The position numbers were made by a program, and so were the translations under genes. A stretch of 48,103 bases of DNA, from assembly GCA_016218965.1 (NCBI GenBank), contig JACRCP010000396.1, positions 1 through 48,103 on the forward strand, given 5' to 3'. A model generated the notes under the pieces. It saw only the letters and a list, made by a program, of their open reading frames with translations. It made no database searches and had not been told where the DNA came from. Below, piece by piece: positions 2,972 to 41,904 of this stretch. The DNA comes from Deltaproteobacteria bacterium (GTDB lineage Bacteria > Myxococcota > SpSt-1050 > JACRCP01). Each line of letters starts with the position of its first letter. The first letter of the stretch is position 1.

Positions 2972-2980
2972 GCACTGCCC

Positions 2981-4375: not shown

Positions 4376-4385
4376 ACTTTGGAGT

Positions 4386-4475
4386 GCGGCAGCTTGCTAC
4401 CGCTTTGAATTGAAGCGAGCTTGCTCGCGACACGCGGCAGCAAGCTGCCGCACAAAAGCGCAAGCAAGCTTGCGC
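4386..4475. repeat. Array of four tandem 14-18 bp perfect or near-perfect palindromes, with core GC(G/R)NAGC-WW-GCTNCGC, immediately 3' of purF
   Basis: GCGGCAGCTTGCTACCGC at 4386-4403, GCGAGCTTGCTCGC at 4415-4428, GCGGCAGCAAGCTGCCGC at 4434-4451, GCGCAAGCAAGCTTGCGC at 4458-4475. The last two recur almost identically at 40977-41021. Confidence 0.6.
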
Positions 4476-4579
4476 ACTCCAAACGCGGCGTCGCACTTGC
4501 GGGAGCGCCCGGAGTTGTATAGACTGCCCGCAGCCCGAAGGTCGAGCGACCGAAACTGCGGTTTCAAGGAGGCGCGGGG

Positions 4580-5113
4580 ATGGTGATCTTTTTGACGATC
4601 TGCGCGGTGGGGTTCACGATCCTGCTGGTGTCGCTCCTGCTCGGCGAGATCGCGGACCACGGCGGGGAGCTGCTGCACGACATCGGCGGCGACCATGACG
4701 CCCTCGAGACCTCCGGCCCGAGCTTTTTCAGCCTGAGGATGATGGCAAGCTTCGTCACCGGGTTCGGCGGCGCGGGGGCCATCGGGCGCCACCTCGATCT
4801 GTCGTACTTCGCGAGCTCGGCCGTCGGCCTCGGCGGCGGCATGGCGATCGCCGGGCTCGTGTACGTCGTCGTGAGCTTCGTCTACAAGCAACAGGCATCC
4901 AGCACCGTCGTGGTCTCCCAGCTGGTCGGGAAGATCGCCAAGGTTTCTATCACGATCCCCGCCGGGGGCGTCGGGCAGGTAACGCTGCCCGCCAAAGGCT
5001 CGACGATGACCGTAATGGCAAGGGCTCAGGACGGCGCGGAGATCGAGTATGGCTCCGTCGTCGTGGTGAAGGAAGTGGTGGGGGACCAGATCACAGTTGC
5101 AAGACAACCTTAG
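4580..5113 (+). CDS. NfeD-like membrane protein, the partner of an SPFH/flotillin protein
   Basis: ATG at 4580 with AAGGAGG RBS. N-terminal TM helices and a C-terminal OB-fold-like segment (KVSITIPAGGVGQVTL...VVVVKEVVGDQITV), directly upstream of a flotillin gene. Confidence 0.75.
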   Translation: MVIFLTICAVGFTILLVSLLLGEIADHGGELLHDIGGDHDALETSGPSFFSLRMMASFVTGFGGAGAIGRHLDLSYFASSAVGLGGGMAIAGLVYVVVSFVYKQQASSTVVVSQLVGKIAKVSITIPAGGVGQVTLPAKGSTMTVMARAQDGAEIEYGSVVVVKEVVGDQITVARQP

Positions 5114-5126
5114 GGAGGACAGCACA

Positions 5127-6917
5127 ATGCAGGCACGGATGCGGATTTTCGTGGTTTTCGGAACATTCCTGACCGTCGCGTTCGCCGCCTCAGAGGCGGC
5201 GGCGGAGTCGGCGGTCGAGGCGTTTAACCTGTCGGCCCTGTTCATACCGGTCATCGTCCTCGTCTGTGTTCTGGCGACGATCATCGCAATCGCGATATTC
5301 CTCCGGAACTACGTCAAGGTCCCGCCCAACCAGGTCGCGGTAATCTCGGGACGAAAGCGCTCGCTCGCCGACGGCTCGGCGGTCGGATTCCGGCTCGTGA
5401 GCGGCGGCGCGACGTTCCGCTGGCCGTTTCTCGAGATCGCCCACTACATGAACCTCGAGGTCATCAGCATCCCGGTCTCGACCAAGAACGTCATTACCAA
5501 GGAGGGCGTGCCGCTCAACGTCGATGCCATCGCCAACGTGAAGATCGGCGGCGACGAGAGTTCGATGGGCAACGCCGCCGAGCGGTTCCTCGGGATGCAG
5601 GCCGACGAGATGCGGCACATCGTCGAGAACACGCTCGAAGGACACCTCCGGGCGATCTGCTGCACGCTCACCATCGAGCAGATCAACTCGGACCGGCAGA
5701 AGTTCGCCCAGCAGATGATCACCGAGGCGGCCGACGACCTGCGGCGCATGGGGATTGTCATTGACGCGCTCGTCGTCCAGCATATCCAGGACGAGCAGGG
5801 ATACCTCGAATCTCTCGGCAAGAAGCGCACCGCCGAGGTCAAGCGCGACGCCGAGATCGGCCAGGCCGAGGCCGGCCGTGACGCGGCGATCCGCACCGCC
5901 GAGGCCCAGCGCGACGCCACCAAGAAGGGGACCGACGCCCAGCGCGAGGGCGCGGTGACAAGGAACAAGAACCTCGAGGAGATCGCCCAGGCGGAAAGGA
6001 ACCTCAAGGTCAAGCAGGCCCAACTCCAGTCCGAGATCGCGGCGGAAGAGGCGGTCAGGGACCAGGCCGGCCCCAAGTCGAAGGCCGAATCCGAGAAGGC
6101 GGTGCTTGTCGCCCAGGTCGACGCGCAGAAGGCCAAGATCGAGGCCGAGATCACGCTCCAGCAGAAGCTCGCCGAACGCACCCAGCAGGAACTTCAAGCC
6201 ACCGTTATCCGCCAGGCCGAGGCCGGGCGGCAGAAGGCGCTCATCGACGCCGAGGCGTACCAGACTGCCACGGTCGTCAGGGCCCAGGGCGACCGCGATG
6301 CGGCCATCACCAAGGCCGAGGCGGGCAAAGAGGTCGCCGTGCGTGAGGGTCAGGGCGAGGCGTCCAAGATCAAACAGATTGGCGAGGCCGAGGCGGCCAG
6401 GACCCGGGCGGTCATGCTGGCCCAGGCCGAGGGTGAATCGGCCCAGATCAGGCAGAAAGGCGAGGCCGAGGGCGCCGCGATCCGCGCGAAACTCCTGGCC
6501 GAGGCCGAGGGGACGCTCAAGAAGGCCGAGGCGATGCGCCAGATGGAGGAGGCCGCCAAGCTCATGTTCATCCTCGACCGCCTGCCCACGGTGATTGATT
6601 CGGCGGGCGAGGCGGCCGCCAAGGCCCTGACGCCGGCATTCCAGGCGGTCGGCAGCGGGATGGCGAGCATCGACAAGGTCACTATCATCGAGACGGGAGA
6701 CGGAAGCGGCCAGGGCGGCGTGGCCAGGTTCGCGAGCACGGCGCCGACGGTATTCTTCCAGGTCCTCCAGCAGGCCCGGGCGTTGGGCCTCGACCCGACG
6801 ACTCTGTTCGACAAGCTCGGCGTGAAGGTCGTCGAAAATCTCGGCGTCGAACAGGCTGTGAAGTCGGCGATTCCAACGGTCAGGGAAACAGCCGCTCCGC
6901 CGGCCAAAAAGGCCTGA
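5127..6917 (+). CDS. Flotillin-like SPFH/band-7 domain protein
   Basis: ATG at 5127 with AGGGAGG RBS. A TM hairpin, then an SPFH domain and a long Ala/Glu/Gln-rich coiled-coil (EA repeats) typical of bacterial flotillins (YqiK/FloT-like). Confidence 0.85.
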   Translation: MQARMRIFVVFGTFLTVAFAASEAAAESAVEAFNLSALFIPVIVLVCVLATIIAIAIFLRNYVKVPPNQVAVISGRKRSLADGSAVGFRLVSGGATFRWPFLEIAHYMNLEVISIPVSTKNVITKEGVPLNVDAIANVKIGGDESSMGNAAERFLGMQADEMRHIVENTLEGHLRAICCTLTIEQINSDRQKFAQQMITEAADDLRRMGIVIDALVVQHIQDEQGYLESLGKKRTAEVKRDAEIGQAEAGRDAAIRTAEAQRDATKKGTDAQREGAVTRNKNLEEIAQAERNLKVKQAQLQSEIAAEEAVRDQAGPKSKAESEKAVLVAQVDAQKAKIEAEITLQQKLAERTQQELQATVIRQAEAGRQKALIDAEAYQTATVVRAQGDRDAAITKAEAGKEVAVREGQGEASKIKQIGEAEAARTRAVMLAQAEGESAQIRQKGEAEGAAIRAKLLAEAEGTLKKAEAMRQMEEAAKLMFILDRLPTVIDSAGEAAAKALTPAFQAVGSGMASIDKVTIIETGDGSGQGGVARFASTAPTVFFQVLQQARALGLDPTTLFDKLGVKVVENLGVEQAVKSAIPTVRETAAPPAKKA

Positions 6918-6920
6918 GCG

Positions 6921-7376
6921 ATGCCCGCGGAAGAGCAAACACCGCGTGAGCAACGGGGGCGTCGGACGGACGCGCTGGTCGTCCAATGTTCGAGTTTCGA
7001 GTACCGTCCGTACTTCGAGAGCTTCGTCCTCCACAAGCTGGGCATCCACGAGTATGACCTGCTGGCCGTCCCCGGCGGAATCCAGGTCCTCACGATGGCC
7101 AACTACGTCCCGAAATTCGCATCGCTCCCGAGGCAGTGGCTCGAGTTCATGTTGAAAAAGCACGGCCTCATGCGGATCATCGTCTTCGGCCACGAGGATT
7201 GCGCCTGGTACAAGGACTTCCGCTGGGGACCGATTCACGTTGACCTTCGAAGGCGCCAGCAGAGCGATCTCGTTGCGGTCGCCTCTGACCTCCGCGAGCA
7301 GTACCACGTGCAGGTGAACGCCTTCTACGGCCGGCCTGATGAAGCGGGGAAGGTAGATTTCGAAATGGTGGTGTGA
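6921..7376 (+). CDS. Hypothetical protein, with a possible divergent beta-carbonic-anhydrase-like Cys/His/Cys arrangement
   Basis: ORF begins 4 nt after the flotillin stop. Cys23 (VVQCSS), then His101-x2-Cys104 (FGHEDCAW) with spacing like beta-CA zinc ligands, but the CxDSR dyad is not conserved. Confidence 0.5.
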   Translation: MPAEEQTPREQRGRRTDALVVQCSSFEYRPYFESFVLHKLGIHEYDLLAVPGGIQVLTMANYVPKFASLPRQWLEFMLKKHGLMRIIVFGHEDCAWYKDFRWGPIHVDLRRRQQSDLVAVASDLREQYHVQVNAFYGRPDEAGKVDFEMVV

Positions 7377-7379
7377 CGC

Positions 7380-8717
7380 ATGAGAACCGCAGCGTTGTTC
7401 GTAGTGGCGTTGCTGCTGGCCTCCTGCGCGGGCGAGTCCGAGACCTCCACGGACGCCGGCTCGCGCGATTCCGGCGGAGCCGCCGAAGGGGACTCGGGAG
7501 GCGCGCCGGGGGCCTGCGCGCGTGACGACGACTGCCTCGCGTTCGAGACGTGCGTTGATGGACGTTGCGTGATTCCGGACGTGCCGGACGCGGGGACGCC
7601 TGATTCGTCCGACATGTCAGACACGTCGGACCAGTCCGACACGGGCGTGACGCCCGACACCAACGACGCCGGTTCGCTGGACGGTCCTGATCTGTCCGAT
7701 GTGTCCGACATGTCCGACGTGTCAGACCTGTCCGATGCCGCCGACGCGGGGTTTGACGCCGGCGGCACTGACGGCGGCACCGACGCCGGCCAGGGCACCT
7801 GCCCGGTCGGCGTGACGTGCGTCGATTCATTCCCGTTCGGCGACGACCGCGACACCTCGGCCGAGCCGCCTGGCACGTTCTCGTCGTACTCATGCAAGCC
7901 GACAGTCAACGAGGGCGGGCCGGAGGTGATCTACCGCGTCACCGTTCCGGAGGCGGGGTTCCTTTCGGCGGCCGTGTACGAGGAGAGCGGCGTGGACGTG
8001 GACGTCCACATCCTCTCGGAACTGAACCAGTCTAAGTGCATCGACCGCGGGAATTTCCACGCCCGCGCGGACGTCGAGGCGGGAGTCCACTGGGTCGTGA
8101 TAGACACGTACGTCAGCGGCGGAACTCCCCAGGCCGGGAAGTTCCATGTGGACATCGGCTTCTACGTCCCGTCACGCGGTTCGTGCGCCATGGAGACGGG
8201 CGAGATGCCTCGCGTGGGTGACGGCGGCAATCATCTTCAAATGCCGGCCACCGGGCCGATGGTCCTCGAGGCGCACCTTGTCACGCAGGAAGAGTCTTAT
8301 CGGCCCGCTTCCTCGACACAGCACCTGACCGAGCACTACGCCCTCTCGCAGACGGAGACGGGTTTCGTGATGTATCGCGAGGAGGTCTGGGCGCCGCTCG
8401 AGGGCGGGAGTTTTTACGGCGCGGGGATCGGTGATCCGTCCCTGTTCCCCGTTCTGCACGAGGGTTGGTACGTCAACATGTACTGGACCGCGGCCGCCCG
8501 CCCGTCCCGCGGGACGAGAATGATCCTCAAGGACCCGGATTCGTCCCATGCGGTCGTCGTGGCGGCCGGATACGAGACCGGCCCCGGTGATCTCTCGAAC
8601 ATCGGCGGGACGCCCGAAGAGACTCATTTCTTTTTGCGCACCGGCCACGAGAGCACCCTGACGCTCGGCATCGCGGCCGACCAGACCCTGCCTTACGGCC
8701 CGCGCGTGTGCGAGTAG
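7380..8717 (+). CDS. Lipoprotein with an N-terminal CxxDDDC motif and a (D-x-S-D)n low-complexity linker, unknown function
   Basis: Signal peptide with lipobox LLASC, then GACARDDDCLAFETCVDGRC, then SDMSDTSDQSD...LSDVSDMSDVSDLSD linker, then a ~300-aa globular domain. Confidence 0.65.
   Translation: MRTAALFVVALLLASCAGESETSTDAGSRDSGGAAEGDSGGAPGACARDDDCLAFETCVDGRCVIPDVPDAGTPDSSDMSDTSDQSDTGVTPDTNDAGSLDGPDLSDVSDMSDVSDLSDAADAGFDAGGTDGGTDAGQGTCPVGVTCVDSFPFGDDRDTSAEPPGTFSSYSCKPTVNEGGPEVIYRVTVPEAGFLSAAVYEESGVDVDVHILSELNQSKCIDRGNFHARADVEAGVHWVVIDTYVSGGTPQAGKFHVDIGFYVPSRGSCAMETGEMPRVGDGGNHLQMPATGPMVLEAHLVTQEESYRPASSTQHLTEHYALSQTETGFVMYREEVWAPLEGGSFYGAGIGDPSLFPVLHEGWYVNMYWTAAARPSRGTRMILKDPDSSHAVVVAAGYETGPGDLSNIGGTPEETHFFLRTGHESTLTLGIAADQTLPYGPRVCE
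7607..7740. repeat. Strand-symmetric TCCGAC/GTCGGA-rich tract encoding (D-x-S-D)n
   Basis: Imperfect hexanucleotide repeats gtccgacatgtcagacacgtcggaccagtccgacac and ctgtccgatgtgtccgacatgtccgacgtgtcagacctgtccgat. They read as SD repeats on both strands. Confidence 0.6.
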
Positions 8718-8739
8718 ACAACAAAAAGAGAGGAGTGCG

Positions 8740-10632
8740 ATGAAGAACTTCACCATTGGGGAGCGCCTGCGGTACGCCTTTGACAATACCATGTCCAAGG
8801 GGACCATCGCGCTCATTGGCTGGCTGGCGGTCCTTTCGGTCGTAGTCATCGCCTTCATCTCGGCCATCGTGTGGGCGGTCGGCATCGCCCCGGAGGGAAA
8901 GGGCGATTTCGCGAAGCTCCTGTGGATGAGCCTCATGCGCACGCTCGACGCCGGCACGATGGGCGGCGACGAAGGCGATTGGGCGTTCCTGTTTGCGATG
9001 CTCGGCGTCACCATCGCGGGGATCTTCATCATCTCGACGCTCATCGGCGTGCTCACCACCGGCATCGAGGCCCGGCTCGGGGCGCTCCGAAAGGGCCGCA
9101 GCAAGGTGGTCGAGCAGAACCACACGGTCATTCTCGGATGGTCCGAGGCGGTCTTCACGATCGTCTCCGAGCTCACCGTCGCCAACGAGAACCAGAAGAA
9201 CCCCTGCGTGGCGATCCTCGCCGACAAGGACAAGGTCGAGATGGAGGACACCATCCGCGACAAGGTCGGCGACACCAAAAACACGCGTGTCGTCTGCCGC
9301 ACCGGCAGCCCGATCGATCTCAACGACCTCGACATCATCGGCATCCACTCATCGAAGTCGATCGTCGTCCTCGCCCCCGACGTGGCGGACCCGGACCCCG
9401 AGGTGGTCAAAGTGGTCCTCGCAATCACAAACCACCCCTTCCGCCGGCAGGAGCCGTACCACATCGTGGCCGAGCTGCACGACCCCAGAAACGTCGAAGT
9501 CGCGAAGATGGTCGGAAAGGACGAGGTCGAGGTCGTCCTCGTCTCGGACCTGGTCGCGAGGGTTATCGCCCAGACGTGCCGGCAGTCGGGACTGTCGGTC
9601 GTGTACCAGGAGCTCCTGGACTTCGGCGGTGACGAGATCTACTTCTTCGACGATCCCGCGCTCGTCGGAAAAAAGTTCGGCGACACGCTCAACCTCTTCC
9701 CGGAATCCACGGTCATGGGCTGGCACCCGCACGACGGCGCCCCGGCGCTCAATCCGCCAATGGATACCGTCCTGCGCGCCGGTGATCGGCTCGTGGTGAT
9801 TGCGGAGGACGACGACACGACGAAGATCGGCGCGGCCGCTCCCCGGGTGGACACCGCCGCCTTCTCGGACGCTCCCGTCCCGCCGCCCGCCCCCGAAAAG
9901 ACGATCATCCTCGGGTGGAACTGGCGCGCGCCGATCCTAATCAACCAGCTCGACGCCTACGTCGCCCCCGGCTCCCTGGTGACGGTGGTATCCACCAACC
10001 CCGACGCGACCGCGCAGTTCAAGAAGCTCTGCACCGACCTCAAGAACCTCAAGGCGGAAATCCGCGAGGGCGACCCCGCCGACCGCCGCCTGCTCGACTC
10101 GCTTAACATCCCCGGCTATCACCACGTCATCCTGCTCTCGAACTCCGACACGATGACCCCCGAGGCGGCCGACGCGCACACGCTCTTCACGCTCCTTCAC
10201 CTCCGCGACATCGCCGACAAGTTCGGAAAGTCGTTCTCGATCGTGAGCGAGATGCTCGACGTGAAGAACCGCGAGCTCGCAGAGGTGACGCGGGTGGACG
10301 ACTTCATCGTGAGCGACCGTCTGGTGAGCCTGATGCTCACACAAGTCTCCGAGAACAAACACTTGAACGCGGTCTTTGCCGACGTCTTCGACCCGGAGGG
10401 ATCCGAGATCTACCTCAAGCCCGTCGAGCGCTACGTGAAGACGGGCGTCCCGGTGAACTTCGCGACCGTGGTCGAATCCGGCAGGCAGAAGAGCGAGCTT
10501 GCCATCGGCTGGTCAATCAAGGTCCACGCCCATGACGCGTCAAAGGCCTACGGCGTGCGGACCAACCCCAAAAAGGACGAGACCGTCACCTTCGCCCAGG
10601 GCGACAAGGTCATCGCCGTCGCCGAGTCGTAG
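8740..10632 (+). CDS. CASTOR/POLLUX (DMI1)-like ion channel with tandem RCK/TrkA-like domains
   Basis: ATG at 8740 with GAGGAG RBS. Two TM segments flank a pore-like region (MRTLDAGTMGGDEGDW), followed by two RCK-like domains (HTVILGW..., KTIILGWNW...). Confidence 0.8.
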   Translation: MKNFTIGERLRYAFDNTMSKGTIALIGWLAVLSVVVIAFISAIVWAVGIAPEGKGDFAKLLWMSLMRTLDAGTMGGDEGDWAFLFAMLGVTIAGIFIISTLIGVLTTGIEARLGALRKGRSKVVEQNHTVILGWSEAVFTIVSELTVANENQKNPCVAILADKDKVEMEDTIRDKVGDTKNTRVVCRTGSPIDLNDLDIIGIHSSKSIVVLAPDVADPDPEVVKVVLAITNHPFRRQEPYHIVAELHDPRNVEVAKMVGKDEVEVVLVSDLVARVIAQTCRQSGLSVVYQELLDFGGDEIYFFDDPALVGKKFGDTLNLFPESTVMGWHPHDGAPALNPPMDTVLRAGDRLVVIAEDDDTTKIGAAAPRVDTAAFSDAPVPPPAPEKTIILGWNWRAPILINQLDAYVAPGSLVTVVSTNPDATAQFKKLCTDLKNLKAEIREGDPADRRLLDSLNIPGYHHVILLSNSDTMTPEAADAHTLFTLLHLRDIADKFGKSFSIVSEMLDVKNRELAEVTRVDDFIVSDRLVSLMLTQVSENKHLNAVFADVFDPEGSEIYLKPVERYVKTGVPVNFATVVESGRQKSELAIGWSIKVHAHDASKAYGVRTNPKKDETVTFAQGDKVIAVAES

Positions 10633-10642
10633 GCAGGCCGCA

Positions 10643-11641
10643 TCATTCGAAAACGGCCGCCATGATGGCGACGAGATGCGCGACGTCCTGGACGCGGCGG
10701 AACGACCCGGCGTTGACGTGCGACAAGGCCGGAGTGACCAGGAGCCGGTGACGCCCCGACCCGGCACTCCCGCGCAGTTCGGCGGATATCCTCTTCGAGT
10801 GGACCGGAGGGATGAGAGGGTCGTTTGCGTCGTGCAGAAGCAGGACCCGGCATCCGGGTCCGAACGTCCTGCCCGCCGGCGAAAGCTCGCGGAGCGTCTC
10901 GCGCGACAGGGTCTTCTCGTACAGGCGACGGAGATCGGCCGCGTTGAGCGCGCGTTCGCAGAAGGCGCGCCGCGGCGCGAGATCCCGGTCCTCGCACCAC
11001 GTGCGCAACAGACGCGCCACCTCGTCCCCATCCGCGCGGGAGATTCCGGCCCGCGTTCCGAGCGCGTGCGCCATCAGAAATCTCAGATACAGATGGTTGT
11101 CCCACTCCTCGTCCGTCCGCGGCGCTCCGGAATAGCGGTTCCAGACCCATTGAAGCGCCTCGTAAAGGGAGTGGTACGCACCGAACGATATCACGGTGTC
11201 AATCGTGCCCCGCCCCGCGTCGTCCGCCGCTGCGGTGAGCGAGATACCGGCCCCGAAGCTGAACGCGACGATCCCGGCCGGCCGGCCGTCCAGCCGCGCC
11301 AGATGCCCCGACAAGTCGGTGATCGCCGAAAGATCGCCGCGCTCGAACCGCCCGTTCTTGAGGCCCGGAAGCTCGACTGCGGCCGCACGCACACCCCGGC
11401 GCGCCAGCGCCCGCGAAAACCCCACGAGCCGCCGGTCCATTTCGCCCGCGAGCGTCATCCCGTGAACCGTGATCCACGTCCGCGCCGCGCGCGCCGGTTC
11501 ATACAGACAGTACGACGTACCGCCCGGGGTCCGGGGGCGTCGCTCCAAAACGCCAGGACCGTCGCCCACCGCCATCGGGTCTACGACCTCAAGGAGGAAA
11601 CGCGCGGACTTCGCCAGCGACAAGACCCGCCGCGCCTTCAC
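10643..11641 (-). CDS. Alpha/beta-hydrolase fold protein
   Basis: Nucleophile-elbow-like AFSFGAG and an HG-type motif (VHGMTLAG). Its start codon overlaps the stop of the upstream rhodanese gene by 4 nt. Confidence 0.7.
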   Translation of the reverse strand: MKARRVLSLAKSARFLLEVVDPMAVGDGPGVLERRPRTPGGTSYCLYEPARAARTWITVHGMTLAGEMDRRLVGFSRALARRGVRAAAVELPGLKNGRFERGDLSAITDLSGHLARLDGRPAGIVAFSFGAGISLTAAADDAGRGTIDTVISFGAYHSLYEALQWVWNRYSGAPRTDEEWDNHLYLRFLMAHALGTRAGISRADGDEVARLLRTWCEDRDLAPRRAFCERALNAADLRRLYEKTLSRETLRELSPAGRTFGPGCRVLLLHDANDPLIPPVHSKRISAELRGSAGSGRHRLLVTPALSHVNAGSFRRVQDVAHLVAIMAAVFE

Positions 11642-12078
11642 GGTGCCCCCCTGTCAACCGGTCCGCGCCACGCCTCGATCCCGCCGGCCAGGTTCCTGAC
11701 CTTCCCGAAGCCCCGGCTCATAAGCCTTTTGGCCGCCACTTTGCTCCGGTGCCCTTTTTGACAGTACGTCACGACGTCGGCGTCGGCACTCAGCGCGGCT
11801 GCGCTTCCGGGAAGCCCGCCAAGCGGCATCAGGACGGCGCCCGGGATGCGCCCGCGCGCGAATTCGGCCGGCTCCCGGACGTCCACGATCACCACGCCCT
11901 TCCAGTCCCGAAGAAGCGACTCGAGATCGGCGGCACTGATTTCCTTGACGCCAAAAAACCTCGCCGCGTCAAATGCAAACGCCACGGCAGCGGCCGCACC
12001 GGCAACAACGACGACCGTGGCGACGACACGCACCGGACCGCCGGGTCGCGAATCAGGTTTGTCTTCCGCGGGGTTCAT
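11638..12078 (-). CDS. Membrane-anchored single-domain rhodanese (sulfurtransferase)
   Basis: N-terminal TM helix, then a rhodanese fold with active-site loop CQKGHRS and DVREPAEF. ATG at 12078. Confidence 0.75.
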   Translation of the reverse strand: MNPAEDKPDSRPGGPVRVVATVVVVAGAAAAVAFAFDAARFFGVKEISAADLESLLRDWKGVVIVDVREPAEFARGRIPGAVLMPLGGLPGSAAALSADADVVTYCQKGHRSKVAAKRLMSRGFGKVRNLAGGIEAWRGPVDRGAP

Positions 12079-12132
12079 ACCTATAATTCGGATACTAAAC
12101 CGGCAGAGGTGCCCGTGGCAACCGAACTCAGC

Positions 12133-12951
12133 ATGCTCGAACAGATCGTCGCGTTCGCCTCGGGTTTCGTGATCAAACCCGCCTACATGATCGCGATGCT
12201 CGTGTTCGTGCTGATCGTCGGGCGAAACAGCGAGCCGGACGTCCGGCAACTCGGCGCCGGAACGGCGGTTTTCCTGCTCGGGGAGGTCTTCTGCGCGGCC
12301 GACTACCTTTTTGCCGGCGGAAAAAACGTTGCACTGGAGTGGCTTCACGGCCTTGGCATGATCGCCGGCTCCGGGATTTTGTTTCTCGGCTTCATCAACA
12401 CGGCGGACCGAAGAGTGCTTTTCTTCTCGGCGCCCGGCCGCGCCTGCGCGTTGACGCGTTTCTGCGGCACCTGCGCCAAAAACACCCGGACGCCGTGCCG
12501 TTTCGAGCATCTGTTCATGTTCTTCTCGCTGTCGCTCGCGGTCGTCTCGTGCATGCCTTTCGCCTCGCCGTTCATCCAGATCGACAGGACCGTCAAGGTC
12601 TTCGGCACCGACGTCTGCCAGAACCACCCCGTTTTCCTGCAACTCTTCGAGATGCGCATCTATCCGGCGACCGCCGTGGTGCTTTTCTGTGCGTCATTTC
12701 TCGCCCTGCTCTGGATCAGGAACTCGCCGGTGGGCGTTGCGAAGTACCCTTTCGCCTTCGGCCTCGGGTTCTTTTCGTACGGTACGTTCAAGTATTTCCT
12801 GCTTGCCGCGTACCGCGAGGCCGTCGTGCGGGCCGACTTCTGGGAGGAGGTCACCGAGCTCCTCCTGACCGCCGGACTGATCATCTTCGTCGCACTTTTC
12901 CGCAAGCGCCTTTTGTTGAAAGGCTCTCACGAAACCGGGGAGGCGGCATGA
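12133..12951 (+). CDS. Polytopic integral membrane protein with conserved Cys pairs, translationally coupled to a radical SAM gene
   Basis: At least seven hydrophobic segments, plus CGTCAKNTRTPC and CQNHP motifs. The stop overlaps the rSAM start (ATGA at 12948-12951). Alternative in-frame GTG starts at 12109 and 12115, and a TATAAT lies at 12082-12087. Confidence 0.6.
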   Translation: MLEQIVAFASGFVIKPAYMIAMLVFVLIVGRNSEPDVRQLGAGTAVFLLGEVFCAADYLFAGGKNVALEWLHGLGMIAGSGILFLGFINTADRRVLFFSAPGRACALTRFCGTCAKNTRTPCRFEHLFMFFSLSLAVVSCMPFASPFIQIDRTVKVFGTDVCQNHPVFLQLFEMRIYPATAVVLFCASFLALLWIRNSPVGVAKYPFAFGLGFFSYGTFKYFLLAAYREAVVRADFWEEVTELLLTAGLIIFVALFRKRLLLKGSHETGEAA

Positions 12952-13976
12952 TTCGCGCCCGGGACGTCCTCGAAGCGGCAAAGATGGCGCGCTACGCGGC
13001 GTCATTCCTCCGGAAACGGCTGGTCCACGTCAACCTTCAACTCCTTTACGACTGCCCAATGCGATGCCGGATCTGCGACTTCTGGACCGACCGCTACCGT
13101 GACGAACCGGCGCTCACCGCCCGGCAGGTCGAGACGATCTCGGAGAACCTCGCAAGGATCGGCCCGCAGATCGTATCAATCGGCGGAGGGGAGCCGCTTT
13201 TGCATCCGCAGATTGTCGATGTCGTCCGGGCGTTGGGCTCGCGGCATTTCCCGGTGATGATCTGCAACGGCTGGTTCGTGACGCCGGCGATCGCCCGGGC
13301 GGTCTTTTCGGCGGGGGCGTACGAGGTGAGCGTGTCGGTGGACTACGCCGACCCCCGGCGGCACGACTCCCAACGCGGGGTCGAAGGGGCACACCGGCGC
13401 GCCCTCGATGCGCTGAACATTCTCAACCAGGCCCGGTCGGGGCCGTGGCAGCGCGTCCACATGATCACGGTCGTCATGGACGACAACCTCGAGGAGATCG
13501 AGCCTTTGATCCGTCTGTGCCGTTCGATGGGGATCACCTACCTCGTCACGCTGTATTCCGACAGCCGCGGGAGCAAGGAGACGCGCGCGGTGCCGCGTGA
13601 CGTGAGCGCCCGCCTCGTCGCTCTGAAACGCAGGCACCCCGAGTTCGTCGCCCTGCGCGGCTACCTCGGCAAGTTCTCGGAATCGGTCGGGTCGGGAGGG
13701 ATAGGGCCGTGTTTCGCCGGGAGGAACCTGTGCAACATAGACAACCGCGGGAACGTCGCGCTCTGCATCGACAGGATGGACGAACCCGTGGGGAACATCC
13801 TCGCCGATGACCCGCTGGTGATCGAGGAGAGGCTCCTTTCAAAGCACGAGTCGAACACCTGCCGCGCGTGCTGGACCTCGTGCCGCGGGTCCATTGAAAC
13901 GCTCATGTACGGCGGCGGTGCGCCCGCCAACCTGCTCGACTACTATCGGATGACGAGGCCTGTTGCTATCGCCTGA
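12948..13976 (+). CDS. Radical SAM enzyme with a C-terminal Cys cluster (SPASM/twitch-like)
   Basis: CPMRCRIC (CxxxCxxC) about 30 aa from the start, GGGEPLL SAM-binding motif, and C-terminal C-x2-C-x3-C plus other Cys. GGAGG RBS at 12938. Confidence 0.85.
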   Translation: MIRARDVLEAAKMARYAASFLRKRLVHVNLQLLYDCPMRCRICDFWTDRYRDEPALTARQVETISENLARIGPQIVSIGGGEPLLHPQIVDVVRALGSRHFPVMICNGWFVTPAIARAVFSAGAYEVSVSVDYADPRRHDSQRGVEGAHRRALDALNILNQARSGPWQRVHMITVVMDDNLEEIEPLIRLCRSMGITYLVTLYSDSRGSKETRAVPRDVSARLVALKRRHPEFVALRGYLGKFSESVGSGGIGPCFAGRNLCNIDNRGNVALCIDRMDEPVGNILADDPLVIEERLLSKHESNTCRACWTSCRGSIETLMYGGGAPANLLDYYRMTRPVAIA

Positions 13977-14988
13977 GACCCGCCTTCGCCGCCAGCATCG
14001 CCTCCCGCAACACCGACGCCGGGTGATTGAACGCGAGCGAAAGCCCGAGCGCGCACGCCGAGTGGCAGCGGGTGTCGCACGAGGGCTCGGGGCCGATTTG
14101 TTCGCGCCCCGCCGCCCTGATTCGGTCGAGGTCGGGCTCGGAGAGCAGGTTCCCCGCCACGCGGCCGATCTCGAGGCACGGGTAGAACACGTCGCCGACC
14201 GGGGACACAGCCAGCACGGTCGAGGGGCGGCACAGGAACTTTGAAAGGTCGCGCATGTGCTCGAGATACGCGACGGTGCCGTGGACCTTTCCGCCGCGCC
14301 TCTTCCGGGCAATCAGGAAGTCAAACAGCCGGCGGTACTCCGGGTCGCCGTCGAACCGTGCCGGGGCCTTCACGCCCAGAAGTTGCGGGCAGAGGGCGAA
14401 CCGAAAACCGCACGAGCTCGCGTATTCGTAGACGTCGTAGAGGTCCGCGAGGTTGTCTTCGGTCGCGACCGACGAGATGATGATCTCGTAACGCCTGCCG
14501 GGAAACGTACGTGCCCTCTCAATCTGCCCCAAGATGCGGGCGTGCGCCCCCGGCCCCGCTCCAAGCCAGCGATCGGCCTTGGCGGCGTCGAGGGTGTCGA
14601 GGCTGAACACGAGATGTTTGACGGCTTCGTTGATGAGCGTAAGGTGCCGCTCGACGTCGTCGCCGATCGTCGTAAGCACGACGCCGTCGAAACCCAGCGA
14701 CGGCAGGCCGCGAAGGACGTCGTTGAGCGCCGGATACCTGAGCGGCTCACCGCCGGTGAGGACCAGGAAATCGGCATAGCGCCGAATCGTTGCAAGAACC
14801 CGCAGGACCTCGGGGGCCGAAAGCACCGGTGAGGCCAGCCGGTAGTACGGCGTGCCCGTCCCGTCGCTGCAATACGGGCACCGGTAGTTGCAGGCGTAGG
14901 TGAGGTAGTACACGGCAAGAAGCGGGTGCCACCTAAGCGGGTCGCGCGTGCCCAAATGAACGAGGCTGTTTCGGAGGGTCAGGAGCAT
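13966..14988 (-). CDS. Radical SAM enzyme with a C-terminal Cys cluster, convergent with and overlapping the previous rSAM
   Basis: ATG at 14988 with AGGAG context. CNYRCPYC motif, TGGEPL, and C-terminal CDTRCHSAC. The last 11 nt overlap the 3' end of the plus-strand rSAM. Confidence 0.85.
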   Translation of the reverse strand: MLLTLRNSLVHLGTRDPLRWHPLLAVYYLTYACNYRCPYCSDGTGTPYYRLASPVLSAPEVLRVLATIRRYADFLVLTGGEPLRYPALNDVLRGLPSLGFDGVVLTTIGDDVERHLTLINEAVKHLVFSLDTLDAAKADRWLGAGPGAHARILGQIERARTFPGRRYEIIISSVATEDNLADLYDVYEYASSCGFRFALCPQLLGVKAPARFDGDPEYRRLFDFLIARKRRGGKVHGTVAYLEHMRDLSKFLCRPSTVLAVSPVGDVFYPCLEIGRVAGNLLSEPDLDRIRAAGREQIGPEPSCDTRCHSACALGLSLAFNHPASVLREAMLAAKAGLRR

Positions 14989-14998
14989 GATCCCGGCA

Positions 14999-15436
14999 TC
15001 AGCCGCGATCGAGGTGACGCGAGCCGATGGCGCCGAAGACGCCGCCCAGAGTGCCGCCGATGATCGGCCCGGCGAGCCACATCGCGATGATGAAGGTCTT
15101 GGCTTCCTCCGGATGATTGCTGGCGATGAGCATCGTAAGCGGGGGGAGAAGGACCGAAAAAAGGCCCACTGCCGCCCCGACGAAAATCCCGTCCAAAGCC
15201 GTCGCCGGGCCGGCGGCGGACCGGTGCCTGGCAACCCAGAGTCTGGTCCCGAGATCGTTGGCGACCACGGCCGAGAGACCCCCGACGACAAGCGAAAGAA
15301 CGATCCGCAGGGCATAAACCGGCCGGAACGGAATTGAAACGAGCGATCCGACCGACCACAGCACCGTCGGCACGATGCTGTACAGCGCTCCGATGAGCCT
15401 CGCCCTCCGGACGTACGCTTCGCAGATATCCTTCAC
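14999..15436 (-). CDS. Small integral membrane protein (4 predicted TM helices)
   Basis: GTG start at 15436. Highly hydrophobic 145-aa product ending 11 nt upstream of the minus-strand rSAM start. Likely co-transcribed with it. Confidence 0.5.
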   Translation of the reverse strand: MKDICEAYVRRARLIGALYSIVPTVLWSVGSLVSIPFRPVYALRIVLSLVVGGLSAVVANDLGTRLWVARHRSAAGPATALDGIFVGAAVGLFSVLLPPLTMLIASNHPEEAKTFIIAMWLAGPIIGGTLGGVFGAIGSRHLDRG

Positions 15437-15463
15437 GCGTCCCCCTTTCCGATATTCGGAAAC

Positions 15464-15955
15464 CTATTCGACGTCCGCGGCGGGGGCGGGGCGGTTTGTG
15501 CCGCCGGCGGTGAGGGCCACTGTCCCGTCGTCGCACAACTCGGTCCGGGACAGCAGCGTTCCGTCGGCCGCCAGAACGGCCAGCGCGCGTTCGCCCAGCC
15601 TCACGACATCGAATTCGGTTTCGGACCCGTCGGTGAAGATCACCCGCACGCGCACGGTGGAGTCGTCCACGCGCGCGAACTCGGCGAGCGCCCCGTCGGG
15701 GAGGGCGCCGGACGTGAGCGGGTTGTCCCCGGTCCAAAACTCGATCAGGTTGAAGACAATCGCATCGGCAAGCGCGATGACGCCGTAGACCGGGATGATC
15801 GTGAACGCCCACAGCACAAGCGTCTTTACCCACTTGTTGTCGAGGCTGTCGTTCCACTTGTACACCGTCCGAATCGCCTTGAACGACCCGAAACACGACG
15901 CGAGCGAGAGCATCAGGACCGAACCGATGAGAACCGCGGCGATGGCTCTTTTCAT
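15464..15955 (-). CDS. Lipoprotein (lipobox LSLASC) of unknown function
   Basis: Internal ATG at 15955 with GGAGG RBS gives MKRAIAAVLIGSVLMLSLASC. The mature part has a hydrophobic hairpin (LVLWAFTIIPVYGVIALADAIVF). The longer ORF upstream lacks a signal. Confidence 0.6.
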   Translation of the reverse strand: MKRAIAAVLIGSVLMLSLASCFGSFKAIRTVYKWNDSLDNKWVKTLVLWAFTIIPVYGVIALADAIVFNLIEFWTGDNPLTSGALPDGALAEFARVDDSTVRVRVIFTDGSETEFDVVRLGERALAVLAADGTLLSRTELCDDGTVALTAGGTNRPAPAADVE

Positions 15956-16106: not shown

Positions 16107-16343
16107 ATGCCGACGGTGATGCATCTGGGACCGTACCGGTTGTTTTTCTACGCCAACGACAGAGCGGAGCCGGTCCATGTTCACGTCGAGCGCGAGGCAT
16201 CGAACGCGAAGTTCTGGCTCGGGCCGGTGCGGCTCGCACGAAACAACGGTTTCAGGCCGATCGAGTTGGGGAGAATCGAACGCCTCGTGTCGGACCACGA
16301 GGACGGGATTGCGGAGGCATGGCATGACTACTTCGGGGATTGA
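16107..16343 (+). CDS. DUF4160-family small protein
   Basis: 78 aa (MPTV...RLFFYANDRAEPVHVHVEREASNAKFWL), overlapping the downstream DUF2442-like gene by 20 nt. Confidence 0.6.
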   Translation: MPTVMHLGPYRLFFYANDRAEPVHVHVEREASNAKFWLGPVRLARNNGFRPIELGRIERLVSDHEDGIAEAWHDYFGD

Positions 16344-16704
16344 GACGGCGGGGATCAGGGCTACTGATGTCCGGGTGAACCGGGACAGTCTGAGCGTCGA
16401 TCTCTCGGACGGGCGGACCATTTCGGTGCCCCTCGCCTGGTTTCCTCGTTTGCTCCACGGGAACATGGCGGAACGGGCGAACTGGCGGCTCATCGGAATC
16501 GGCGCCGGAATTCACTGGCCCGACCTTGACGAGGACATCAGCGTCGAAGCGCTGGTGGCCGGAGTCGGGTCGCAGGAAAGCCAGCGTTCGCTGGCCGCGT
16601 GGGTCGAATCCCGGCAAAAACGAGCGCCCGGCCGGAAGACCGCGCGAAACGGGCGCCGCGGCGCGGGAAGGTGCAAAGACACCGCACGCCACATCGCGAG
16701 GTAA
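16324..16704 (+). CDS. DUF2442-family protein, the usual partner of DUF4160
   Basis: Internal ATG at 16324. Contains the conserved LSVDLSDGRTISVPLAWFPRL segment. Confidence 0.55.
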   Translation: MTTSGIETAGIRATDVRVNRDSLSVDLSDGRTISVPLAWFPRLLHGNMAERANWRLIGIGAGIHWPDLDEDISVEALVAGVGSQESQRSLAAWVESRQKRAPGRKTARNGRRGAGRCKDTARHIAR

Positions 16705-17296: not shown

Positions 17297-17536
17297 ATGC
17301 TTGCCAAGAAGACGTCGAAAAACCAGATCACGCTGCCCAGGGACGCGGTAAAGGAATTCCCCGGAGTCGACTACTTCGACGTGTCCGTCGCCGACGGCAG
17401 AATCTGCCTCATTCCGGTGAAGTTCGAGTCCGCGGCCGGCACCATTGAAAAGGTCCGGAAGAAGATCGCTGCGCTTGGGATCACAGAGGAAGACATCCGG
17501 AATGCGATTTCGTGGGCGAGGGGCAAACGCAGGTGA
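17297..17536 (+). CDS. AbrB/MazE/SpoVT-type antitoxin
   Basis: AAGGAGG RBS. KNQITLPRDAVKEF swapped-hairpin motif. The stop overlaps the PIN gene start (GTGA). Confidence 0.7.
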   Translation: MLAKKTSKNQITLPRDAVKEFPGVDYFDVSVADGRICLIPVKFESAAGTIEKVRKKIAALGITEEDIRNAISWARGKRR

Positions 17537-17949
17537 AACGCCTCCGGGTCGTCGTTGACACGAATGTCGTTGTTTCGGCGCTCCTCTTTCCGGGCCTCAC
17601 GGCCGGGATAAGAGAACTTTGGAAATCCGGCGCATTCACAATGCTCGCATCCGGCGAAATGTTCGCCGAGTACGTCCGCGTTCTGGCTTACCCAAAATTC
17701 GCGCTTGCCGAAAACGAAGTGCGGGCGTTGCTGGACAACGAGGTAGTGCCGTTCATCACCCCCGTCAAACCGGGTTCGAAGTTCCCCCCGACCTGCCGCG
17801 ACCCCGATGACGACAAGTTCCTGGCCTGCGCGGCCGCAGGAAGGGCGGATTTCATAGTCACCGGCGACGACGACCTGCTCGTGTTGAAAAAACACGGCCG
17901 CTGCCGCATCGTGACGGTCAAGGATGCGCTGGCACTGCTCGGAAGCTGA
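17533..17949 (+). CDS. PIN-domain toxin
   Basis: VVDTNVVVSAL N-terminal PIN signature with later acidic residues (DPDDDKFLA, TGDDD). A GTG start at 17533 is proposed; the ORF track start is 17512. Confidence 0.7.
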   Translation: MKRLRVVVDTNVVVSALLFPGLTAGIRELWKSGAFTMLASGEMFAEYVRVLAYPKFALAENEVRALLDNEVVPFITPVKPGSKFPPTCRDPDDDKFLACAAAGRADFIVTGDDDLLVLKKHGRCRIVTVKDALALLGS

Positions 17950-20176: not shown

Positions 20177-22060
20177 CTACTTGCAGCACTTCTCTATCAG
20201 GTCCGGCGGCTGGACGCCGTATTCGCAGGCGCAGCAGACGTCCTTGCACTCGGGCGGCGTGCAGCAATTGTCTATGATCGCCGGGTCCACGGTGCCGCAG
20301 TCCGGTTTCGGCGCACAGCACTTCTCGTTCACCTCGGGCGGCAGCACGCCGTAGTCGCACTCGCAGCAGACGTCTTCGCAGCTGACGCAGCACTCGGCGA
20401 ACTGCTCGGGCGTCACCGAACCGCAATCCGGCGGCTCCACTCCGTAGTCGAGCGTGATGCAGCATTGCGACGCCACGGTGCAGTCGACCGGTTCCTTGGG
20501 GCAGCATTCGTCTATCACAGCCGGATCGACCTTGTCGCAATCCGGGGGAGGGATGCCGTACTCGGGGGCGGCGCAGCACTGCTCGTAGACATCCGGGGGG
20601 ATCACGCCGTAGTCGCACTCGCAGCACACGTCGCCGCAGTTGATGCCGGCGTCCGGCGCGGGACCGGCGTCCTCGCCGATGACTCCGCCGTCCGGCGGCT
20701 CGACACCGTACTCCGGCTGGATGGCACAGCACTCTTCGTAAACGTCCGGCGGGATCACGCCGTATTCGCACTCGCAACAGACGTCCTTGCAGTTCGTTCC
20801 TCCGCCGTCCGGAGCGGGACCGGCGTCCTGTCCCACGGCGGCGTCCCCGGAAACGCCCCCGTCCTCGGCCGGGCCTCCCGAGTCCTCCACCACGGCACCC
20901 GCATCCCCGGAAGTGACCGCGACGTCGCACCCGCCGACTACCAGCGAAAACGCCGACGCAGCCGCGGCCATGTGCCGCGCCACGCGCCTAAGCGGCCGCT
21001 GGCGGACAAGCTCCGAGACCCTGTAGTAGCAGTAGGGGTCCTCGAAGACCGACGGTCCCATTGCCGCGGCCACGCATTTCGCGCCGCCCCGGCAGAGTTT
21101 TGCGTACCGGCAGGTCTTGCAGAATCCCGTGAGGTCGGCGGCCCGGAAGAGCCGGTTGTACGAAAATGCCGCCGGGTCGTTCCAGATGTCAGATAGCGCC
21201 CTCTCGCGGACGTTCCCTTCGACAAACGGGTCGCGATCGCGGTCCGAGAACGCCTGCATCGAGAGGCAGCCCTTGATGTTTCCGTTCGACTCGATCCCGA
21301 TCGCCTGGAGCCCTGCCTGGCACCCGCCCCAGCGCTGGGGTTTCCCGTCCCACGACATGGCCCGCAGGCGCGAGTCGTACGGCCCGTAGAAACCGATCGA
21401 ATCGCCAATGTGGACTCGAATCCCGCCCTTCGATTCGAGCCGGTAGAGGCGCGGGAGCAGATCAAGAAGGTCCTCGGGCTCGAGCACCCAGTCATCCCGA
21501 TCCTTCAAGTTCCCCATGGATTTGCCGAGCTGGACGCGCCACGACGCGGCGCCGAGCTTCTCGGCCATGCCGCAGGTCTCTTCGAGGTGCGCAAGGTTGA
21601 GCTTGTTGGCCGTGGTCATGATGGCCGTCGAGACGCCCGCGTCGGCAAGGAATGAGAGGGCGCGCACGGTCTTCGCGAACGTCCCCCTGCCGCGGATCTT
21701 CTCGTGCACCGCCTCGGGGCCATCGATGCTCACCGCGGCGTTGGCGAGCCCCGCGTCCTTCATTCGGCGTGCAAGCTCCGCCGTCATGGAGTTCCCATTG
21801 GTCACGATGTTGGCGATCATCCCGCGGTCGCGGATGGCTTTCGCCACGACCTCCCAGTCGGGCCGAAGTGTCGGCTCGCCGCCCGATAGCGTGATGAGCC
21901 TGCCCCCGAGCCTCGCGAGCGAGCCAACGACGCCAAGGCACTCGGCGGTGTCCATCTCGTCGGGCCGGGCCGTACCCGCCCGCGAGCCGCAGTGCCCGCA
22001 CCGCAGATCGCACGCCAGTGTGAACTCCCACACGCAGTTGACCGGCTTGAACTCAGGCAT
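20177..22060 (-). CDS. Radical SAM/SPASM-domain enzyme fused in frame to a signal-peptide-like hydrophobic segment and five tandem Cys-rich repeats
   Basis: ATG at 22060 with GGAGGG RBS (longer ORF to 22123). CDLRCGHC CxxxCxxC, SGGEPT, and a SPASM-like CKTCRYAKLCRGGAKC cluster. This is followed by RRVARHMAAAASAFSLVVGGCDVAV (signal/lipobox-like), then a Gly/Asp linker and repeats of C-x-DVCCEC-x-YGV-x-PPD-x3-CC. There is no stop between the domains in the sequence as given. Confidence 0.8.
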   Translation of the reverse strand: MPEFKPVNCVWEFTLACDLRCGHCGSRAGTARPDEMDTAECLGVVGSLARLGGRLITLSGGEPTLRPDWEVVAKAIRDRGMIANIVTNGNSMTAELARRMKDAGLANAAVSIDGPEAVHEKIRGRGTFAKTVRALSFLADAGVSTAIMTTANKLNLAHLEETCGMAEKLGAASWRVQLGKSMGNLKDRDDWVLEPEDLLDLLPRLYRLESKGGIRVHIGDSIGFYGPYDSRLRAMSWDGKPQRWGGCQAGLQAIGIESNGNIKGCLSMQAFSDRDRDPFVEGNVRERALSDIWNDPAAFSYNRLFRAADLTGFCKTCRYAKLCRGGAKCVAAAMGPSVFEDPYCYYRVSELVRQRPLRRVARHMAAAASAFSLVVGGCDVAVTSGDAGAVVEDSGGPAEDGGVSGDAAVGQDAGPAPDGGGTNCKDVCCECEYGVIPPDVYEECCAIQPEYGVEPPDGGVIGEDAGPAPDAGINCGDVCCECDYGVIPPDVYEQCCAAPEYGIPPPDCDKVDPAVIDECCPKEPVDCTVASQCCITLDYGVEPPDCGSVTPEQFAECCVSCEDVCCECDYGVLPPEVNEKCCAPKPDCGTVDPAIIDNCCTPPECKDVCCACEYGVQPPDLIEKCCK

Positions 22061-22232
22061 GACACCCTCCAGCGTTTGCTTTCGCGCCATTATACACTGA
22101 TGCCCCGAAAAACGGACAAACAACTTTCAAATCCGATGCCACGCGCAACATGCTGAAATGACTGCCCGTATTGGTCCCGGCACCGTTCAGAATTCCGACC
22201 GAAAGCGAATTTCCGGCGCCTATGGCCCGAGG

Positions 22233-33093: not shown

Positions 33094-33115
33094 TGCGAAA
33101 ACGCGAGGAGGTTCT

Positions 33116-41837: not shown

Positions 41838-41904
41838 GATGCTGGATGCTAGATGCTAGATGGCGCAGATCGAAATCCAGCATCCAACGTCCGGCATCCA
41901 GCAT
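41838..41904 (+). promoter_or_regulatory. Tandem GATGCT(G/A)GATGCTAGATG repeats paired with a downstream inverted copy (ATCCAGCATCC...GGCATCCAGCATCC), forming an extended stem-loop spanning the annotated rSAM start
   Basis: Direct and inverted repeats seen in sequence. A regulatory role is inferred. Confidence 0.35.

Follow-up and report, generated by a model that had tools for sequence, protein, structure and literature searches.

A conserved pair of small radical SAM enzymes, encoded convergently on a Myxococcota contig, as probable tailoring enzymes of an uncharacterised acyl-chain pathway

Two small radical S-adenosylmethionine (SAM) enzymes, here called rSAM1 and rSAM2, are encoded by convergent genes on contig JACRCP010000396.1 (assembly GCA_016218965.1) of a Deltaproteobacteria bacterium assigned to the Myxococcota in the GTDB lineage. 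The stretch analysed, referred to as the window, comprises positions 1 to 48,103 of the forward strand. The two enzymes, a membrane partner and a sulfur-carrier domain make up a conserved module that occurs in more than 12 phyla alongside a dedicated acyl-chain synthase and Tes-like enzymes, and that belongs to no curated family. We consider it probable that rSAM1 and rSAM2 form a pair of tailoring enzymes in an uncharacterised acyl-chain pathway, the product of which would be a lipid or a polyketide-like compound.

The plus-strand unit consists of a Cys-rich membrane protein with seven transmembrane (TM) segments (12115..12951, family F8) followed by rSAM1 (12948..13976; 342 aa). NCBI places the start of the 7-TM gene at GTG 12115, with an AGAGG Shine-Dalgarno sequence, which gives a protein of 278 aa; counted from ATG 12133 it is 272 aa long. 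The two genes are coupled through an ATGA at 12948-12951, in which the stop of the 7-TM gene and the start of rSAM1 overlap, and the GGGGAGG Shine-Dalgarno sequence of rSAM1 sits within the upstream gene. The minus-strand unit opens with a DUF3332 lipoprotein (15464..15955; 163 aa; PF11810 at 112 bits; lipobox LASC), followed by a small membrane protein with four TM segments according to its hydropathy (14999..15436; 145 aa), which lies directly upstream of rSAM2 (13966..14988; 340 aa, as in the NCBI call P0133). The spacings of 27 bp between lipoprotein and 4-TM protein and of 10 bp between 4-TM protein and rSAM2 are consistent with a single operon. The coding regions of rSAM1 and rSAM2 overlap by 11 bp (13966..13976), the TGA of rSAM1 occupying 13974-13976 on the plus strand and the TAG of rSAM2 13966-13968 on the minus strand. 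A preliminary description had reported this anatomy, two convergent radical SAM genes with an 11-bp overlap and membrane protein genes upstream, and the open reading frame (ORF) listing and translations agree with it throughout.

Both enzymes belong to the radical SAM superfamily (PF04055), with scores of 72 bits for rSAM1 and 48 bits for rSAM2 against a gathering score of 29.5, and carry the motifs CPMRCRIC (C36-x3-C40-x2-C43) and GGGEPL in rSAM1, and CNYRCPYC and GGEPL in rSAM2. On sequence and profile comparison they are distant paralogs with a common architecture, as had been suggested at the outset: BLASTP aligns them at 27% identity (E 2e-10), and hhalign returns a probability of 99.1% (E 6e-19) over 258 columns, the alignment extending to the first C-terminal Cys pair. 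The C-terminus of rSAM1 is a Cys-rich, SPASM/twitch-like auxiliary domain. Invariant cysteines in rSAM1 are C36, C40, C43, C255, C273, C305, C308 and C312, with C262 nearly invariant, and in rSAM2 C33, C37, C40, C253, C271, C304, C308 and C312; the five to six conserved C-terminal residues in each enzyme point to at least one auxiliary iron-sulfur cluster.

Family assignment ended at this general level. Classification with hidden Markov models gave only the generic Radical_SAM family for both enzymes, and no curated family claims either of them, those of cofactor and lipid biosynthesis included. The best NCBIfam scores were 77 bits (rSAM1) and 51 bits (rSAM2), while the best-scoring models need 265-500, and both enzymes stay below the NCBIfam cut-offs of PqqE, MftC, MoaA, NirJ/AhbD, ScmF and other curated radical SAM equivalogs. 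The SPASM domain (PF13186) has no match at E<=0.01 in rSAM1 or rSAM2 of the window, although precomputed PF13186 hits exist in two rSAM1 homologs. Similarly, some rSAM2 orthologs have weak or precomputed hits to DUF3463 (PF11946), which reach 28.9 bits where measured, below the gathering score of 31.3, and rSAM2 of the window shows no match at E<=0.01. Profile searches of PDB sequences retrieved only remote relatives of the SPASM/twitch, MoaA or viperin type, with BlsE and SkfB the best for rSAM1 (E ~1e-15). The AlphaFold2 model of rSAM2 has a mean confidence (pLDDT) of 88.9, and its best Foldseek neighbours are SuiB, SkfB, CteB, BlsE and MoaA, at a TM score of about 0.6 and identities of at most 19%.

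A scan of one genome per species yielded 60 rSAM1 loci, all of them in metagenome-assembled genomes (MAGs), and neighbour counts were taken within 10 kb of rSAM1 in 61 non-redundant loci by a tblastn presence matrix and ORF clustering. Both ORFs are strongly backed by orthologs, at 50-84% identity across phyla. For rSAM1 the orthologs share 50-81% identity over more than 12 phyla, with hosts in the Myxococcota, Verrucomicrobiota, Planctomycetota, Acidobacteriota, Thermodesulfobacteriota, Leptospirales, Riflebacteria, Elusimicrobia, Kapaibacteria, Fibrobacteria, Aminicenantes, Nitrospiraceae, Actinomycetota (Aquicultor) and Alpha-, Beta- and Gammaproteobacteria; those of rSAM2 share 42-84%. Hundreds of rSAM1 homologs at around 60% identity are labelled only 'radical SAM protein', and the same holds for rSAM2. 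An exact search with rSAM1 of the window in the contig index gave no match.

At most loci the pair is embedded in a fuller cluster. This comprises a set resembling a type-II fatty acid synthase or polyketide synthase (FAS/PKS), two Tes-like radical SAM enzymes, a hexapeptide acyltransferase and a sulfur-mobilising element. The FAS/PKS-like set is made up of a ketosynthase (KS), a KS-like partner, two ketoreductases (KR), a FabZ-like dehydratase, a dedicated acyl carrier protein (ACP) and a nitroreductase-family flavoprotein, the domain identities of the complete cluster being taken from locus L044 (Pfam and NCBIfam scans). The most frequent neighbour of rSAM1 is rSAM2 (41 of the 61 loci), followed by a Tes-like Zn-ribbon radical SAM enzyme (39/61, two per complete cluster), a FabF-like KS (31/61), a nitroreductase-family protein (28/61), a PEMT/ICMT-like membrane protein (24/61), a FabZ-like dehydratase (23/61), a hexapeptide transferase (21/61), the 7-TM protein (20/61) and a NifS-type cysteine desulfurase fused to rhodanese (16/61). 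Against NF045702, with its cut-off of 450, the Tes-like enzymes reach 208-253 bits and are thus Tes-like rather than members of that family.

Several loci (L069, L044, L028 and L040) combine these functions in a single operon. In L069 the order is 7-TM protein, FabA-like protein, an unassigned 194-aa gene in the position of the KS-like partner, KS, nitroreductase, ACP, KR, Tes-like enzyme, hexapeptide transferase, a second Tes-like enzyme and finally two radical SAM enzymes in succession. Clusters that lack the 7-TM protein and rhodanese (among them L044, at 81-1265, and L028, L030, L037, L049 and L050) begin with a NifS-type desulfurase carrying a C-terminal rhodanese fusion. With rhodanese present in the 7-TM clusters and the NifS-rhodanese fusion in the others, a sulfur-mobilising domain recurs in both layouts. 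A variant without rSAM2 occurs in L039-L047, L058 and L066 (Desulfovibrio, Azoarcus and Zoogloeaceae MAGs), and three of these loci (L041, L045 and L047) hold a second rSAM1 paralog, of 42-45% identity, in place of rSAM2; a pair of small radical SAM enzymes beside two Tes-like enzymes is therefore the recurring theme. In the same variant, two unassigned families, F19 (~390 aa) and F20 (~220 aa), recur adjoining rSAM1.

Since the two units in the window occupy opposite strands and have different upstream genes, they could be thought unrelated neighbours that abut by chance. This is extremely improbable, however: rSAM2 lies within 10 kb of rSAM1 across phyla and in three gene orders, and the two enzymes have diverged in a correlated fashion, their distance matrices correlating with r = 0.64, a value reached in none of 2000 permutations. 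The preliminary description had read the units as two related maturase systems, each with its own membrane partner. A functional link between them stands, but the frequent co-location and the occasional single operon (as in L069) argue for one system with two components. As to the membrane partners, the 7-TM protein recurs at a third of the loci, whereas just two loci beyond the closest relatives, L020 and L049, have the 4-TM protein.

Gene orientation was counted in the 31 loci in which both radical SAM genes were called. Fourteen are convergent, 14 are tandem with rSAM1 ahead of rSAM2, and three have the order rSAM2, 7-TM protein, hydrolase, rSAM1; a PEMT-like gene usually separates the two enzymes in the tandem loci. 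When rSAM1 is placed on a neighbour-joining tree, nearly all of the convergent layout is confined to one clade. This distribution does not support the overlap as a conserved design. The overlap might nevertheless be functional in itself, as the preliminary description had proposed, through mutual read-through, transcriptional interference or antisense RNA between the operons. Read-through is plausible, since a search of the rSAM1/rSAM2 junction found no terminator-like site, and the sequence from 13921 to 14020 shows no significant RNA hairpin on either strand relative to shuffled controls (z +1.1 and -1.2). Overlaps of 11-59 bp are moreover present in 10 of the 14 convergent loci, in several phyla, and also in L004 (17 bp) and in the closest relatives L067 and L068 (11 bp each). 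Set against this, half of the two-gene loci are co-directional, some of them as a single operon, the convergent genes are elsewhere set apart by 19-177 bp (in four loci) or by ~5.8 kb, with two large genes in between in L001, and the overlapped codons encode only the poorly conserved C-terminal tails and both stop codons. A functional role of the overlap is accordingly unlikely. The absence of a terminator-like site and the hairpin scores also led us to reject the idea that the overlap contains a structured RNA or a bidirectional terminator.

Shared location, varying orientation and correlated divergence taken together indicate that the pairing is functional and the orientation historical. The 11-bp overlap is a compact, lineage-specific layout inherited in one clade, not a mechanism or a required antisense device; antisense interference may occur within this lineage, but it would not be the defining trait of the unit.

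The 7-TM protein of the window matched no family in Pfam and NCBIfam scans. When 1.84 billion cluster representatives were searched with a profile, 564 relatives emerged, 292 of them at E<=1e-30. Among the best 150 of the 564, the motif C-x(4-6)-C-x2-C-x-K-x(4-6)-C is kept in 140, WEExTE in 141 and GExxC in 147. Ninety-one of the same 150 relatives are at least 400 aa long, and the long forms that were sampled have an N-terminal rhodanese. The window encodes its rhodanese separately, as a membrane-anchored single-domain protein (11638..12078, minus strand; 146 aa; TM segment at aa 14-43) divergent from the 7-TM gene; it scores 74 bits against the PF00581 gathering score of 22.2 and has the active-site loop YCQKGHRS. 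Its position is conserved in L067 and L068, and the long fused homologs mark the stand-alone protein as the split form of a common fusion. Some fusions start with a lipobox or a TM helix, from which it follows that rhodanese is probably extracytoplasmic and the four-Cys loop between TM3 and TM4 cytoplasmic. The 683-aa family member P0368, with the order rhodanese, 7TM and DUF1638, hints at further partners.

Upstream of rSAM1 the 7-TM gene often has a 4-bp start/stop overlap; the window is one case and L004, in its called genes, another. Across loci the 7-TM and PEMT-like proteins are almost mutually exclusive; on comparison, homology between the two was rejected. In L006 the 7-TM protein and rSAM1 share one frame without an intervening stop (7944-9587). 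This was set aside as Rosetta-stone evidence, as the same gene contains a frameshift and the long-read assembly many split gene calls, so that the fusion may be an artefact.

These observations can be joined into a tentative scheme. An ACP-bound acyl or polyketide-like chain would be assembled by the type-II FAS/PKS-like set and then remodelled by four radical SAM enzymes, rSAM1 and rSAM2 performing two tailoring steps at or near the membrane. The Tes-like enzymes, of the C-C coupling type, and the sulfur-mobilising element would serve the same pathway. The 7-TM protein may dock rSAM1 at the membrane and relay sulfur or reducing equivalents, a place that in other lineages would be filled by the NifS-rhodanese fusion and the PEMT/ICMT-like membrane methyltransferase. 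The data show the structure of the genes, the paralogy, the conserved co-location with its varying orientation and the domains of the neighbouring proteins; the lipid-type substrate, the division of labour, what the membrane protein does and all specific chemistry are matters that we infer.

A number of points weigh against an acyl-chain pathway. A search of the 48-kb window found no FAS/PKS-like, Tes-like or NifS genes, and the closest relatives likewise have none; the link to the pathway in this organism therefore rests on other genomes. What the window holds of the system, namely the α/β-hydrolase, rhodanese, 7-TM protein, rSAM1 and rSAM2, is its tailoring half only. Four further loci (L001, L013, L018 and L021) show the pair with none of these pathway genes within 10 kb. 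The two radical SAM families, the 7-TM family and the cluster have no characterised member, and a literature search found no description of the rSAM1/rSAM2 pair, of the 7-TM family or of the cluster. The solved structures that come nearest belong to peptide or small-molecule enzymes, not lipid enzymes. Finally, the related loci come exclusively from MAGs, and our own ORF calls at high-GC loci include some spurious opposite-strand ORFs (seen in L004), for which reason the counts were drawn from the tblastn matrix.

Some of the same facts would suit a different role, in which the two enzymes serve the maturation of a protein or cofactor and not of a lipid. They might modify or load a centre of metal or sulfur on the 7-TM Cys protein, or make a small-molecule cofactor with rhodanese sulfur. 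In the window the pair is accompanied only by rhodanese, the 7-TM Cys protein and the hydrolase, the four-Cys loop of the 7-TM protein looks metal-binding, and a sulfur-mobilising domain recurs across the clusters. The best NCBIfam similarities also include MftC, PqqE, MoaA and NirJ/AhbD, all far under cut-off. However, the 7-TM protein is missing from about two-thirds of the loci, where the non-homologous PEMT-like protein occurs instead, and the dominant context is acyl-chain synthesis on a dedicated ACP together with Tes-like enzymes. We regard maturation of a protein or cofactor as rather unlikely.

A further possibility is that the two enzymes are maturases of ribosomally synthesised and post-translationally modified peptides (RiPPs), of the sactipeptide or SPASM type, acting on an unannotated small precursor peptide. 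SkfB, SuiB and CteB are among the closest solved structures in both sequence and fold, and the window contains other genes resembling SPASM peptide maturases (20180-22126 and 41853-42989). Yet the intergenic stretches that might have held a precursor gene, 12079-12114 and 15437-15463, contain no plausible small ORF (of at least 20 aa), in line with the earlier remark that no obvious precursor accompanies the pair. Nor does any conserved small gene family adjoin the pair in the 61 loci, among the ORFs of at least 90 aa that entered the family clustering. The conserved neighbours are instead ACP, KS, KR, dehydratase and Tes-like enzymes, and both rSAM1 and rSAM2 score far under every curated maturase cut-off, with identities to peptide maturases that do not exceed 19%. 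A RiPP maturase function for the pair is very improbable, and tailoring of an acyl chain remains our preferred explanation.

The window contig is unusually rich in radical SAM genes. The gene at 20180-22126 (minus strand) encodes a 649-aa radical SAM/SPASM protein with the GDL-motif-peptide-associated and nif11-class maturases as its closest models (297 and 286 bits, below their cut-offs). In L067 and L068 a radical SAM gene of 605-640 aa stands upstream of the DUF3332 lipoprotein, 4-TM protein and rSAM2 genes on the same strand. The 649-aa protein could be a third radical SAM enzyme tied to the minus-strand unit, or it could belong to a separate RiPP system. The gene at 41853-42989 (plus strand) encodes a 379-aa radical SAM/SPASM protein that resembles TIGR04133 'rSAM_w_lipo' (259 bits against a cut-off of 425).

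The remaining neighbours appear to be more loosely attached. The α/β-hydrolase (10643..11641, minus strand; 332 aa; Pfam Abhydrolase_6/1; family F17), the GTG start of which overlaps the rhodanese stop (GTGA), is a probable accessory gene: it lies between the 7-TM gene and rSAM1 in L011, L022 and L026 and adjoins the 7-TM gene in L056, and it is missing from the closest relatives L067 and L068. The 4-TM protein, for which Pfam and NCBIfam gave no family match, has homologs near the cluster only in L020, L049, L067 and L068, so that its tie to the radical SAM system is weak. Among the related loci the DUF3332 lipoprotein is present only in L067 and L068 and is probably lineage-specific. Between the DUF3332 operon and the next gene sit two toxin-antitoxin-like pairs on the plus strand, DUF4160 with DUF2442 (16107-16704) and an unassigned 79-aa protein with a PIN_3 protein (17297-17949); neither occurs at this place in L067 or L068, which points to a recent insertion. 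Further along, the plus strand encodes a 2172-aa bacterial α2-macroglobulin (33089-39607). In L069, too, an α2-macroglobulin and PBP1C (1918-9987) lie directly upstream of the 7-TM-led operon, and the presence of α2-macroglobulin beside the system is probably a coincidental housekeeping context.

Only recently have enzymes been identified that use radical SAM chemistry to remodel the tails of lipids (Tes, Mss, Gms, Grs and HpnH). A more far-reaching possibility, and a speculative one, is that the cluster makes an undescribed class of bacterial membrane lipids in anaerobes, with cross-linked or membrane-spanning chains akin to brGDGTs (branched glycerol dialkyl glycerol tetraethers) or with sulfur-bearing chains. 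In that case rSAM1 and rSAM2 might form new C-C or C-S bonds, and the 7-TM protein might represent a new transmembrane relay for sulfur or electrons. What bacterial Tes homologs do, and how brGDGT-type and ladderane-type lipids are made, are still open questions (PMC8941075, PMC13459092), and the single-operon versions of the cluster in L069 and L044 are concrete candidates for new lipid-tailoring chemistry.

Compared with characterised radical SAM enzymes, rSAM1 and rSAM2 are closest in sequence and structure to the SPASM/twitch group (SkfB, SuiB, CteB, BlsE, MoaA, PqqE and MftC), which includes their best PDB matches and shares with them the core fold and a C-terminal Cys-rich auxiliary-cluster domain. 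The resemblance is remote, as all curated cut-offs are missed widely. The five to six C-terminal cysteines and their spacing match neither the canonical SPASM (7-Cys) nor the canonical twitch (3-4-Cys) arrangement, and the pair has neither a precursor peptide nor a leader-binding domain of the RiPP recognition element (RRE) type. A single curated model, the hypothetical equivalog PTO1314 (TIGR03961), can be aligned with both enzymes along almost their entire length, but with 76.4 bits for rSAM1 and 51.3 bits for rSAM2 they fall well below its cut-off of 306, and the family is itself uncharacterised.

Two lipid enzymes offer parallels. HpnH, the adenosylhopane synthase, is likewise a radical SAM enzyme of small size, its C-terminal domain (DUF3463) contains Cys, and its substrate is a hydrophobic lipid. 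The scores against TIGR03470 (cut-off 225) are however only 44 bits for rSAM1 and 17 bits for rSAM2, and no hopanoid genes are found among the annotated neighbours in the window or the related loci. Tes/GDGT-MAS shows that radical SAM chemistry can be directed at lipid tails, and the frequent presence of a Tes-like gene within 10 kb of the pair was described above. In contrast to Tes, rSAM1 and rSAM2 are only about 340 aa long and have no Zn-ribbon, and the window encodes no Tes-like enzyme; against NF045702 rSAM2 scores 17 bits, and no match of rSAM1 to this model is among the top 25 hits listed. The bacterial homologs of Tes have been proposed to act in brGDGT synthesis, which is unconfirmed (PMC8941075, PMC11868695, PMC13459092).

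At the level of the whole cluster, a comparison can be drawn with the anammox ladderane cluster, which contains amxACP, amxFabZ, two FabF homologs, a phytoene-dehydrogenase-like enzyme and a B12-radical SAM protein (PMC2649909, PMC10139942). The related loci similarly bring together a dedicated ACP, a FabZ-like dehydratase, paired FabF-like KS and radical SAM enzymes. They differ in lacking any Pfam hit to amine oxidase/phytoene desaturase and in having a B12-radical SAM gene only in L004, while their radical SAM enzymes number four, with two Tes-like ones among them, and are joined by a nitroreductase and by sulfur-mobilising proteins. Identity with the anammox cluster was rejected on account of this difference in composition and because the window has none of its components. 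'Ladderane-type' biosynthetic gene clusters have also been reported by antiSMASH outside the anammox bacteria, in Desulfobacterota, Myxococcota, Verrucomicrobiota, Fibrobacterota and Planctomycetota (PMC9902471). This range of phyla overlaps that of the loci described here, and the reported clusters may be the same as ours, which we offer as a lead rather than a result.

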